From UHGV virus genome UHGV-1558260: a stretch of DNA of 10,168 bases. One strand, 5' to 3'. The position numbers and the translations under genes were made by a program. The notes under the pieces were generated by a model. That model saw only the letters and a program-made list of their open reading frames with translations, was not told the origin of the DNA and made no database searches. Source of the DNA: a virus. The number at the start of each line of letters is the position of its first letter. Position 1 is the stretch's first letter. Below, piece by piece: positions 5,112 through 8,323 of this stretch.

Positions 5112-5438
5112 TCAAATAAGTGGTTTGCAGCCTAATTTCATTTTCTGGCGACCAACACAAGTCAACCCCATTTCACTACGTGGCTTGCTGTACCATGTGC
5201 GCTGATTCTTGCGCTCAATACGTTGCAGGTTGCTTTCAATCTGTTCGTGGTATTCAGCCAGCACTGTAAGGTCTATCGGATTCAGTGCGCTTTCTACTCG
5301 TGATTTCGGTTTGCGATTCAGCGAGAGAATAGGGCGGTTAACTGGTTTTGCGCTTACCCCAACCAACAGGGGATTTGCTGCTTTCCATTGAGCCTGTTTC
5401 TCTGCGCGACGTTCGCGGCGGCGTGTTTGTGCATCCAT
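5112..5438 (-). CDS. N: antitermination protein N (lambda-like)
   Basis: From the ATG at 5438-5436 the protein reads MDAQTRRRERRAEKQAQWKAANPLLVGVSAKPVNRPILSLNRKPKSRVESALNPIDLTVLAEYH..., matching lambda N; the C-terminal ~25 aa differ. The ORF-track entry 5112..5516 is an upstream extension into the leader. Confidence 0.9.
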   Translation of the reverse strand: MDAQTRRRERRAEKQAQWKAANPLLVGVSAKPVNRPILSLNRKPKSRVESALNPIDLTVLAEYHEQIESNLQRIERKNQRTWYSKPRSEMGLTCVGRQKMKLGCKPLI

Positions 5439-5596
5439 CTGGATTCTCCTGTCAGTTAGCTTTGGTTGTGTGTGGGAGTCGTAGTCCTGAACGAAAACAC
5501 CCCGCGATTGGCACATTGGCAGCTAATCCGGATTCGCACTTCCGGCCAATGCTTCGTTTCGTATCACACACACCAAAGCCTTCTGCTTTGAATGCT

Positions 5597-5627
5597 ACCC
5601 TTCTTCAGGGCTTAATTTTTAAGAGCG
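5597..5627 (-). promoter_or_regulatory. nutL: nutL (boxA CGCTCTTAAAAATTAA and boxB GCCCTGAAGAAGGGT hairpin)
   Basis: Reverse complement of 5597-5627 gives the lambda nutL boxA and boxB elements; boxB closes with a G-U pair where I recall lambda having G-C. Confidence 0.85.
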
Positions 5628-5666
5628 TCACCTTCATGGTGGTCAGTGCGTCCTGCTGATGTGCTT

Positions 5667-5729
5667 AGTATCACCGCCAGTGGTATTTATGTCAACACCG
5701 CCAGAGATAATTTATCACCGCAGATGGTT
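5667..5729 (-). promoter_or_regulatory. pL promoter with operators OL1, OL2, OL3
   Basis: TATCACCGCCAGTGGTA (5669-5685), CAACACCGCCAGAGATA (5693-5709), TATCACCGCAGATGGTT (5713-5729); minus-strand -35 TTGACA and -10 GATACT with 17-bp spacing. Confidence 0.9.
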
Positions 5730-5879
5730 ATCTGTATGTTTTTTATATAGATTTATTTTTTGCAGGGTTGTGTGGATTGGGAAGGTGATCGAGAGATCTG
5801 AATTGCGATGTTTAGTGAGTTGTATCTATTAATTTTGAAATAAATACAATTGGTTATGCGTTTTTTGGGGGCGTTAGGC

Positions 5880-5905
5880 AAAGAAAACCCGGCGCAGATG
5901 CCGGG
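5880..5905 (-). terminator. intrinsic terminator downstream of the 301-aa gene
   Basis: cccggc-gcagat-gccggg hairpin at 5888-5905; minus strand then reads TTTTCTTT (plus 5880-5887). Sits about 13 bp past the stop at 5918. Confidence 0.6.
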
Positions 5906-5917
5906 TTGTGGTGGAGA

Positions 5918-6823
5918 TCAATGCTTATTTGGGAGTGCTGGTTTTTTTATCGACTCTAATAGCTCGGAGGCGTTACTAATCTTTTTGTTCCCAAGGTAAT
6001 TTGGCAGTTTTTCCATTGCGTAATTATCGTGTAGCCATTTTCTGAACACGCCAAGTGCCTCAATAGGATAAATCCAAGCTGTTATATGCTTATTTGCAGC
6101 TGACTGCCTGTAATTTTCGGGGAATAAATGTGGGTACTGCACCCTTTCCCCGAATTTCTCAGATAGCCCATTAGCTGTCCAATACTTTCCCCAGTGAATT
6201 CCAACACTTCCATCCAAAGATGTGGTGTCATCCATTGGGAATCCTCCTCCGATCAGGTTCATGGCAATGTCAGCTATCTCTCTGAATACTGCAAAATGAG
6301 TTGTCGGTATCTGATCGTTTAGCTTAATCCTTGCTCTATAGTTCTCGAATGAGATATCTATTGAAGCATTTGGGTTGTAATTTGACTTTTCATAAATCAT
6401 TCGCTTAAGCGTGTACTCAGCCAAGCGAACAAAATTACCTATTGCGACTGACCTATCAAAATTGGTGGCATCTAGAGCGTAGTAACGGAGGATAGCCATG
6501 CAAACATAGTCAGGATAAGCATGAGTTTCCACGTTTGAGCTATTTAAAACGCGAGTGTATAGCTTTTCGACGTTATGAAACCCTTTCTCAGCTAAATACG
6601 CAGCTACTTTTTGACCTCTGGGTTTGTTTTTCTCTGTGTTCCAGTTTGATGTGAACACCCTCAGTGGCGTGTCATCAATGCCGCATAACTTTGCGAGACC
6701 GTAGAGAGTTAGGTAAGGAGTTCCATCATTGAGAACGCCCATAGGAATATCATCAGAAACAACCTCTACTACAGGGAAAAGCTGCATTTGATGCAGGGAT
6801 TCGCTATTGCTGTTAATCGACAT
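5918..6823 (-). CDS. hypothetical protein (301 aa) in the cI-to-pL interval (rexAB position); candidate exclusion/defence gene
   Basis: ORF-track ORF; AAGGAA upstream of the ATG; 86-bp spacer after the cI stop; AT-rich relative to cI. Does not resemble RexA or RexB as I recall them; no family recognised by eye. Confidence 0.7.
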   Translation of the reverse strand: MSINSNSESLHQMQLFPVVEVVSDDIPMGVLNDGTPYLTLYGLAKLCGIDDTPLRVFTSNWNTEKNKPRGQKVAAYLAEKGFHNVEKLYTRVLNSSNVETHAYPDYVCMAILRYYALDATNFDRSVAIGNFVRLAEYTLKRMIYEKSNYNPNASIDISFENYRARIKLNDQIPTTHFAVFREIADIAMNLIGGGFPMDDTTSLDGSVGIHWGKYWTANGLSEKFGERVQYPHLFPENYRQSAANKHITAWIYPIEALGVFRKWLHDNYAMEKLPNYLGNKKISNASELLESIKKPALPNKH

Positions 6824-6909
6824 ATCTTAATGATTTCCTTATTTTTATTGTAGGGATCTTCTTTTTTATTTCCTACATCTAGATGCGTATAAAGTCTCTT
6901 GCTGCGGAC

Positions 6910-7625
6910 TCACCCAAACGTCTCTTCAGGCCACTGGCTAGCGATAACTTTACCCACAACGGAACAACTCTCATTGCATGGGATCATTGGGTACTGTGGG
7001 TTTAGTGGTTGTAAAAACACCTGACCGCTATCCCTGATCAGTTTCTTGAAGGTAAACTCGTCACCACCAAGTCTGGCTATGCAGAAATCACCTGGCTCAA
7101 CAGCCTGCTCAGGGTCAACAAGAATTAACATCCCGTCAGGAAAGCTTGGCTTGGATCCTGTTGGCGCGGTCATGGAATTACCTTCAACCTCAAGCCAGAA
7201 TGCAGAATCACTGGCTTTTTTGGTTGTGCTTACCCATCTCTCCGCATCACCTTTGGTAAAGGTTCTAAGCTCAGGCGAGAACATCCCGGCCTGAACATGA
7301 GAAAAAACAGGGTACTCATACTCACTTCTAAGTGACGGCTGCATACTAACCGCTTCATACATCTCGTAGATTTCTCTGGCGATTGAAGGGCTAAATTCTT
7401 CAACGCTAACGTTGAGAATTTTTGCAAGCAATGCGGCGTTATAAGCATTTTAATGCATTGATGCCATTAAATAAAGCACCAACGCCTGACTGCCCCATCC
7501 CCATCTTGTCTGCGACAGATTCCTGGGATAAGCCAAGTTCATTTTTCTTTTTTTTCATAAATAGCTTTAAGGCGACGTGCGTCCTCAAGCTGCTCTTGTG
7601 TTAATGGTTTCTTTTTTGCGCTCAT
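6910..7625 (-). pseudogene. cI: cI repressor (lambda-type), coding sequence split across three reading frames
   Basis: ATG at 7625-7623 gives [28 protein letters not shown] then TGA at 7541-7539. A second frame from about 7546 encodes [31 protein letters not shown] (the HTH region). A third frame from about 7449 to 6910 encodes [19 protein letters not shown]...QWPEETFG (track ORF 6910..7431). The shifts coincide with an A8 run (plus T8 at 7548-7555) and an A4 run (plus T4 at 7448-7451). Confidence 0.85.
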
Positions 7626-7636
7626 ACGTTAAATCT

Positions 7637-7700
7637 ATCACCGCAAGGGATAAATATCTAACACCGTGCGTGTTGACTATTTTACCTCTAGCGGTGATAA
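7637..7700. promoter_or_regulatory. OR3, OR2, OR1 operators with divergent pRM and pR promoters
   Basis: TATCACCGCAAGGGATA (7637-7653), TAACACCGTGCGTGTTG (7659-7675), TACCTCTAGCGGTGATA (7683-7699); pR -35 TTGACT and -10 GATAAT; cro SD TAAGGAGG follows. Confidence 0.9.
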
Positions 7701-7725
7701 TGGTTGCATGTACTAAGGAGGTTGT

Positions 7726-7926
7726 ATGGAACAACGCATAACCCTGAAAGATTATGCAATGCGCTTTGGGCAAACCAAGACAGCTAAAGATCTCGGCGTA
7801 TATCAAAGCGCGATCAACAAGGCCATTCATGCAGGCCGAAAGATTTTTTTAACTATAAACGCTGATGGAAGCGTTTATGCGGAAGAGGTAAAGCCCTTCC
7901 CGAGTAACAAAAAAACAACAGCATAA
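7726..7926 (+). CDS. cro: Cro repressor (lambda-type)
   Basis: 66 aa [66 protein letters not shown], matching lambda Cro as recalled. Confidence 0.95.
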
Positions 7927-7933
7927 ATAACCC

Positions 7934-7965
7934 CGCTCTTACACATTCCAGCCCTGAAAAAGGGC
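7934..7965 (+). promoter_or_regulatory. nutR: nutR (boxA CGCTCTTA, boxB GCCCTGAAAAAGGGC)
   Basis: boxA at 7934-7941 and the boxB hairpin at 7951-7965, followed by the lambda-like leader that runs up to the cII start. Confidence 0.85.
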
Positions 7966-8044
7966 ATCAAATTAAACCACACCTATGGTGTATGCATTTA
8001 TTTGCATACATTCAATCAATTGTTATCTAAGGAAATACTTACAT

Positions 8045-8323
8045 ATGCAACTTACAAGTACTCGCAAGAAAGCGAATGCAATTACAAGCAACATCCTGAA
8101 TCGAATTGCTGTACGTGGCCAGCGAAAGGTTGCCGACGCGTTAGGGATTAATGAATCGCAAATTTCGCGATGGAAAGACAGCTTCATCCCAAAAATGGGA
8201 ATGCTTCTGGCTGTTCTTGAATGGGGTGTTGAAGACGAGGAGTTGGCGGAACTGGCTAAGAAAGTAGCCAGAATGCTGACAAAAGAAAAAGCCCCGAAGA
8301 ACGGCGAATTCTTCGAGGCCTGA
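8045..8323 (+). CDS. cII: CII-like transcriptional activator (divergent from lambda CII)
   Basis: ATG at 8045 with AAGGAA SD (track ORF 7985..8323 is an upstream extension). 92 aa MQLTSTRKKANAITSNILNRIAVRGQRKVADALGINESQISRWKDSFIPKMGMLLAVLEWGVEDEEL...; the QISRWK and LLAVLEWGV motifs are shared with lambda CII. Confidence 0.8.
   Translation: MQLTSTRKKANAITSNILNRIAVRGQRKVADALGINESQISRWKDSFIPKMGMLLAVLEWGVEDEELAELAKKVARMLTKEKAPKNGEFFEA

Follow-up and report, generated by a model that had tools for sequence, protein, structure and literature searches.

In this study, we analyzed the lambda-type immunity region of UHGV virus genome UHGV-1558260, a stretch of 10,168 nucleotides (nt) that was examined over its whole length and is called the window below. 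The window is a complete metagenome contig with a coverage of 3.28, listed as a SPAdes-style NODE record (ENA ERZ504722 NODE_2104). Its left part carries, in order, a Gp157-like gene, RecT, kil, cIII, and a 322-amino acid (aa) coiled-coil open reading frame (ORF) together with small ORFs. N, a 301-aa ORF, cI, and cro follow in the middle, and the right part consists of cII, a gp53-like ORF, an O-like replication initiator, and a gene for a DnaB-type helicase, which is cut off by the contig end. The 301-aa ORF is bstA, an abortive-infection defense gene. Based on sequence comparison, we consider it about 90% probable that the window covers the early region of a CL707/HK544-type lambdoid phage or prophage, which would have lambda immunity specificity and bstA in place of rexAB. 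The coordinates of all features are listed in Table 1.

Base-by-base alignment with bases 33000–41000 of lambda (J02459) revealed two blocks of homology. Window positions 5137–5907 correspond to lambda 35062–35826, and positions 6910–8047 correspond to lambda 37227–38362. The segment between them (5908–6909) has no similarity to lambda 35827–37226, and rexA and rexB are absent between cI and OL. An initial annotation of this DNA had described a single lambda-type cassette with two junctions, one inside the C-terminal region of N and the other exactly at the cII ATG. Both junctions were located to the base: the left one lies at 5181/5182, and the last matching base on the right is 8047, the G of the ATG at 8045–8047. 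However, the picture of one uninterrupted cassette had to be given up, because bstA replaces rexAB and the number of lambda junctions is therefore four instead of two. Identity to lambda was counted in flanks of approximately 60 nt on either side of each junction, with unrelated 60-mers giving 48 ± 4%. At all four points, the identity drops from 95–100% to this random background (~48%) within 60 nt.

The initial annotation had also proposed lambdoid module exchange with abrupt junctions and had named uniform, gradual divergence in an alignment as the pattern that would contradict it. Ordinary gradual divergence of a single lineage would be compatible with the N C-terminus (last 22 residues) and with the cII protein, both of which are still recognizably homologous to those of lambda. 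The collapse of identity at the four points, the 357 identical bases in a row up to the cII ATG, and the 97–100% identity of the flanking segments to other phages refute this model, which retains a negligible probability. Module exchange is thus the reading that stands, and the sharp junctions are best interpreted as inherited products of recombination among lambdoid phages. Their positions coincide with functional boundaries or short shared sequences, i.e., the stop codon of cI, Timm, the point where cro ends, the ACATATG where cII begins, and a patch within the N 3′ end.

The limits of the bstA insert are exact: it abuts the stop codon of cI at 6910 and, on its other side, base 5907, with which the stem of the Timm-type terminator begins. 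PADLOC and PHROGs identified the 301-aa ORF as BstA, while our Pfam and NCBIfam searches assigned no family to it; the precomputed annotation of the contig lists Pfam BstA_C on this gene. It is 100% identical at the nucleotide level to CL70704 of CL707 and to WP_000026554 of E. coli ECO3183. BstA is a prophage-encoded abortive-infection protein that stops the replication of other phages, and its gene usually lies immediately behind the repressor gene of the prophage (Owen et al. 2021, PMC8585504). In the window, bstA shares its strand with cI and starts at 6823, 86 nt beyond the cI stop (6910), directly after the repressor gene. BstA-Ec, which is approximately 40% identical to BstA-BTP1, was shown by experiment to defend against phages, and its locus gives cognate self-immunity (Owen et al. 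2021, PMC8585504). Exact matches to the primers with which bstA-Ec was cloned from E. coli NCTC10963 lie at 6886–6909 and 5858–5879 of the window; therefore, as judged by primer match, the locus is of the same type as the experimentally tested bstA-Ec locus. Mosaic diversity is known to concentrate in the interval between cI and N, where lambda has rexAB (PMC8585504, with reference to Degnan et al. 2007). The slot from the cI stop to Timm holds interchangeable defense cargo, including rexAB, bstA, hicAB, NYN-domain genes, and others, and a scan that recognizes "lambda immunity" should inspect it.

Table 1 Features, lambda-identity segments, and mosaic boundaries of the window.
Feature	Position	Strand	Remarks
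N 3′-end relic in HK97	5096–5164		HK97 locus excerpt 3655–3722
N antiterminator gene, 108 aa	5112–5438	−	Pfam N36 1.5e-26
nutL	boxB 5597–5611, boxA 5620–5627	−	boxA exact
pL	−35 5690–5695, −10 5667–5672	−	promoter scan
OL1, OL2, OL3	5669–5685, 5693–5709, 5713–5729	−	all exact lambda copies
Timm-type intrinsic terminator	5886–5907	−	just downstream of bstA; left lambda block ends at 5907
bstA, 301 aa, abortive-infection defense gene	5918–6823	−	PADLOC BstA 1.3e-105 (residues 8–286/301); PHROG 6287 6e-133
Candidate aba (anti-BstA self-immunity) element	6791–6861	−	analogy with BTP1
cI, lambda type	6910–7625	−	broken as read by two 1-nt insertions
pRM	−10 7632–7637, −35 7655–7660	−
OR3, OR2	7636–7652, 7659–7675		identical to lambda
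OR1	7683–7699		one change vs lambda, G to A at 7690 (operator position 8); also in CL707
pR	−35 7673–7678, −10 7696–7701	+	recovered by promoter scan
cro	7726–7926	+	protein 100% identical to lambda Cro
nutR	boxA 7934–7941, boxB 7951–7965	+	both exact vs lambda
nutR–tR1–pRE −10–cII start segment	7932–8047	+	100% identical to lambda; also in Sf6, lambda imm434, HK633
tR1	~7987–8015	+	placed from Sf6 annotation
pRE −10 region	8035–8040
pRE −35	8058–8063		within first cII codons
CII-binding repeat TTGC-N6-TTGT, TTGCGAGTACTTGT	8054–8067	−	inside first cII codons; second tetrad TTGT, not TTGC
cII, Sf6/P22 c1 type, 92 aa	8045–8323	+	Pfam Phage_CII 1.8e-42
HK97 gp53-like small ORF	8358–8519	+	PHROG 1331
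O-like replication initiator	8506–9327	+	Pfam Phage_rep_O 4.1e-33; 97–100% identity to HK97 gp54
DnaB-type replicative helicase gene (HK97 gp55 type)	9324–10168, off contig end	+	Pfam DnaB N- and C-terminal domains; 96–98% identity to HK97 gp55
Identity to lambda	5137–5181		62%
Identity to lambda	5182–5748		98.1%
Identity to lambda	5749–5907		83%
Identity to lambda	6910–8047		98.5%
Identity to lambda	7691–8047		357/357 bases
Junction inside N	5181/5182		lambda-like side 60/60, other side 35/65
Junction	5907/5908		lambda-like side 51/62, other side 31/67
Junction	6909/6910		lambda-like side 57/60, other side 35/65
Junction after G of cII ATG	8047/8048		lambda-like side 60/60, other side 29/61
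Mosaic map, just past N stop	~5100		all panel phages diverge leftward
Mosaic map	5181/5182		lambda joins; HK544, CL707, B27, ZH063 share whole N allele
Mosaic map	5467–5566		only CL707 differs
Mosaic map	~5749		lambda falls to 83%; CL707 and ECO3183 remain 100%
Mosaic map	5907/5908, 6909/6910		bstA slot edges
Mosaic map, just after cro stop	7931/7932		hetero-immune Sf6, lambda imm434, HK633 join
Mosaic map	8020–8028		P22, HK630, mEpX2 join
Mosaic map	8047/8048		lambda leaves
Mosaic map	8333		HK97 joins

The regulatory sites on both sides of the slot are those of lambda with few changes. Five of the six operators are exact copies in lambda spacing, OR1 deviates by one base, and Cro is that of lambda, a combination characteristic of the imm-lambda group of lambdoid phages, which also have a CI repressor of lambda specificity. 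Both elements of nutR and the boxA of nutL are exact, whereas the boxB of nutL has a single change (5597) that converts the closing G-C pair to G-U and occurs in neither CL707 nor lambda. According to the initial annotation, the OL and OR operators, nutL, nutR, cro, and cI all match lambda. This applies without reservation to cro and, apart from the single bases in OR1 and in the boxB of nutL, to the operators and nut sites. For cI, the match extends over the gene, which is 98.5% identical to lambda cI when indels are set aside, but the frame is interrupted twice as read.

The cI interruptions consist of an extra T in each of the runs at 7448–7451 and 7548–7555. After removal of both bases, the repaired CI and lambda CI agree in all but 2 of 237 residues (T3A and K71N). 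The helicase gene likewise contains four private indels, located at 10012, 10027, 10060, and 10087 (AA to A, TT to T, GGG to GGGG, and AAA to AAAA), and each of the six indels is private and alters the length of a homopolymer run. Because the coverage is only 3.3×, the frame breaks are probably sequencing errors, and homopolymer errors are the most likely explanation for those in both genes. Real cI frameshifts would make the element a phage with a defective repressor (clear-plaque) or a cryptic prophage in decay, and the immunity cassette would not be functional. This alternative draws on two independent +1 insertions that are missing from lambda, CL707, HK544, HK97, and ECO3183 and on a reading frame that stops after 28 codons. 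We consider it unlikely, since both insertions lengthen homopolymer runs, four further private homopolymer indels are crowded within 76 nt of the helicase gene, the coverage is low, and a gene with 98.5% identity and a two-residue difference in its product does not resemble a decaying one. Homopolymer errors in low-coverage metagenome contigs can imitate pseudogenes, and we prefer this explanation here.

The N protein agrees with lambda N in all but one of residues 1–86 by protein alignment, in line with the match over approximately the first 80 residues noted initially. The last 22 codons (5115–5180) are of the CL707/HK544 type and form a diverged patch that is still homologous to the C-terminus of lambda N. 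The description of N as a chimera holds relative to lambda. However, phages CL707 and HK544 and the prophages B27 and ZH063 carry the same 108-aa allele; therefore, it is a common allele and not a fresh chimera. From the sequences, either the lambda form or the CL707/HK544-type form would fit as the recombinant one. The arginine-rich N-terminal motif and the boxA/boxB sequences downstream of pL and pR are all present, as in lambda N/nut antitermination. Descent of the N 3′ end from HK97 was considered and rejected, the N of HK97 being a different protein (34% identity in a comparison in which the HK97 gene was clipped). Just downstream of its own unrelated N, HK97 keeps a 69-nt relic (96% identical) of the 3′ end of this N allele, which may be regarded as the footprint of an older exchange.

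At the right junction, the sequence from boxA of nutR to the cII ATG does not vary among lambda, Sf6, HK544, and the window, while P22 has its own diverged sequence upstream and a cII start like that of the window. The ACATATG at the crossover is common to lambda, P22, and Sf6. The junction parts the lambda-type −10 region of pRE from the pRE −35 and the CII-binding repeat, which travel with their activator because they lie inside the first codons of cII. A lambda-type nutR–tR1 segment fused to the same cII type is also found in phages Sf6, HK544, HK542, HK244, and CL707 and in the B27 prophage. As far as sequence comparison can tell, the cII-ATG junction is a recurrent and functionally sensible boundary that is not private to this contig. 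A strong antisense intrinsic terminator with a 14-base-pair (bp) stem and a T tract was observed at 8289–8321 (−), overlapping the 3′ end of cII. It is located where the OOP RNA of lambda terminates, and no Rfam family was found for it; in the whole window, Rfam searches at gathering thresholds returned zero families. The terminator suggests an OOP-like antisense RNA for the Sf6/P22-type cII.

The replacement of the lambda cII-O-P block by a divergent cII, an O-like initiator, and a DnaB-type helicase was confirmed by the Pfam matches to Phage_CII, Phage_rep_O, and the DnaB N- and C-terminal domains. The gene after O is not a lambda P-type loader of host DnaB, and the DnaB-type helicase gene is present there instead. 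The O-like gene contains four 18-nt iterons at 8845–8929, spaced 20–24 nt apart, followed by a 14-nt A-rich tandem repeat at 8932–8959. Together, these repeats (8845–8959) form a putative replication origin, as in lambda ori.

Neither any phage record nor any complete E. coli genome covered at least 80% of the window in the full-window search, and thus the exact 10-kb combination is absent from the searched phage and E. coli collections. This absence, the SPAdes-style NODE contig with its coverage of 3.28, and the uncorroborated adjacency of N and an 87-aa ORF near 5100 would be expected if the metagenome assembler had switched at 3.3× between co-occurring lambdoid prophages at shared k-mers, in which case the junctions would be artifacts. 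However, CL707 (5101–8332), ECO3183 (5573–8047), and HK544 (6910–10168) together reproduce all junctions inside the 5112–8045 feature, and Sf6 also does so at the cII junction. The isolates are colinear across each junction, and therefore the junctions inside the immunity cassette are real. These independent isolate records already refute an assembly origin for 5101–10168, which makes it a very improbable explanation of the cassette. The 87-aa ORF (4840–5103), directly downstream of N, belongs to PHROG 33140, a family with no assigned function, and its join to N, outside the cassette, could be a rare arrangement or an assembly chimera. A sequence of approximately 30 nt at 5099–5131, spanning the ribosome site and the start of the gene downstream of N, has counterparts with 90–94% identity where other genes begin in lambda (near ral), in Sf6, and in the ZH063 prophage, and is a candidate for a conserved sequence of the boundary or linker kind.

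The start of bstA deserves attention because of aba. In BTP1, aba is a 63-bp DNA element that overlaps the bstA start and neutralizes BstA for the phage's own replication (PMC8585504). It contains CCCGCC repeats 56 bp apart that are needed for function, and Owen et al. described the repeats for BTP1 only (Owen et al. 2021, PMC8585504). In the window, a direct repeat of ATCCCT at 6852–6857 and 6795–6800, 57 bp apart, flanks the bstA ATG. We collected 30 bstA loci (4 from species-representative genomes and 26 from IMG/VR) with 22 unique start regions, and each start region was compared with itself at offsets of 40–75. Offset 57 stood out sharply, with 12.1 of 25 positions identical versus ~6.4 at other offsets, the 22 loci being mutually related. 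The repeat signal stands out only in this multi-locus scan, and coding constraint contributes to it because the downstream copy lies in codons 8–11. Most bstA loci have direct repeats 56–57 bp apart flanking the start codon, and in the E. coli clade the repeats have a core that contains GATC. Two alphaproteobacterial BstA homologs (37–39% protein identity) have their own repeats at 56 bp; the pair in one of them is TTGGTCACCAAC / TTGGTCACCGAC.

A comparison of alleles points to the same region. The bstA of the ZH063-type (ST131) prophage encodes a 94% identical protein from residue 9 onward, while these alleles have another bstA–cI intergenic region and other first ~17 codons (~53 nt), with a junction near 6770. 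This intragenic mosaic junction (ZH063 locus excerpt 3471–3710) falls exactly where aba lies in BTP1. By analogy, the swap fits the cognate-aba idea of Owen et al. as a hypothesis. We tentatively propose, at somewhat less than even odds, that the bstA start region (~6791–6861) is the cognate aba of the E. coli-type BstA. In that case, repeats 56–57 bp apart would be a general aba signature from BTP1 to alphaproteobacteria, and aba with the first ~17 codons would be swapped as a mini-module between 94%-identical alleles. If true, the specificity of self-immunity is shuffled independently of the BstA effector body. The repeat pattern is the only mildly new material in this analysis and offers a cheap, concrete hypothesis for the aba position in other bstA loci.

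Several points count against parts of this interpretation. If both cI insertions are true, the repressor is dead and the element is a clear-plaque mutant or a decaying prophage. The adjacency of N and the 87-aa ORF occurs in no complete E. coli genome searched, although this junction lies outside the cassette. An ATCCCT repeat alone arises in 7.7% of shuffles, and the exact-repeat test confined to the window was not significant. Finally, we infer the transcription of bstA with cI during lysogeny from gene position.

We propose a scheme for the working of this region based on homology with lambda. CI would bind OR1–3 and OL1–3, shut off pR and pL, and activate pRM, and Cro would counteract CI. 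N, with its arginine-rich N-terminus unchanged, would read the boxB of nutL and nutR and antiterminate transcription. The P22/Sf6-type CII is predicted to activate pRE via its own TTGC-N6-TTGT site in the first cII codons. The bstA gene lies behind cI, has the shared Timm terminator at its end, and would be expressed with cI in lysogeny, and BstA would abort the replication of superinfecting phages. After induction, replication of the phage itself would probably be spared by a short aba DNA element surrounding the start codon of bstA. The phage would depend for its replication on the O-like initiator with its internal iterons and on the phage-encoded DnaB-type helicase, not on a lambda P loader.

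We compared the window with known phages using a table of identity in 100-nt bins against five references, indel lists, and targeted searches. The closest match is the CL707 immunity region (GenBank EF120459, 2007; Degnan, Michalowski, Babic, Cordes & Little 2007, Mol Microbiol 64:232, as cited in PMC8585504), with 96.5% identity as one blastn alignment over 5101–8332 and 99% identity over 97% of the query aligned by megablast. It has the same order of N, nutL, pL/OL, Timm, the 301-aa ORF (hypothetical protein CL70704), cI, OR, cro, nutR, pRE, and cII, and has the N allele and the junction at the cII ATG in common with the window. CL707 differs in a replaced N leader (5467–5566, where the window is lambda-like), a cII 3′ half that is 89–95% identical, IS10 and another ORF downstream of N, and an intact cI. 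The whole arrangement is already known, having been deposited as the CL707 immunity region; it is textbook lambdoid mosaicism and matters little in itself.

Lambda (J02459) shares cI, cro, five of six operators, pL, pR, pRM, nutL, nutR, tR1, N residues 1–86, and Timm with the window, but has rexA-rexB where the window has bstA, its own last 22 N residues, and lambda cII-O-P. HK544 (JQ086374) is colinear over 6910–10168 at 98% identity; it has the N allele of the window, and its lambda immunity is joined to the same block of cII, gp53-like ORF, O, and DnaB-type helicase. Its cI–N slot holds two small ORFs instead of bstA. The E. coli B27 prophage has rexAB in place of bstA, lambda immunity, the Sf6-type cII with the gp53-like, O, and DnaB block, and the same N allele. 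The ECO3183 prophage is 99.6% colinear over 5573–8047 and carries bstA and lambda immunity with lambda cII-O-P. Sf6 (AF547987) is 98.8% identical over 7932–8360 and has the same fusion of a lambda-type nutR with a P22-like cII, but its immunity is of the 434 type (operators, repressor, and cro). The Sf6 record annotates the "boundary sequence" bsq5 where HK97 homology begins (8333). With the BstA-aba system of BTP1 and BstA-Ec, the window shares a full-length BstA profile match, the place after the repressor, and an own terminator; the repeats at the bstA start are CCCGCC at 56 bp in BTP1 and ATCCCT at 57 bp in the window.

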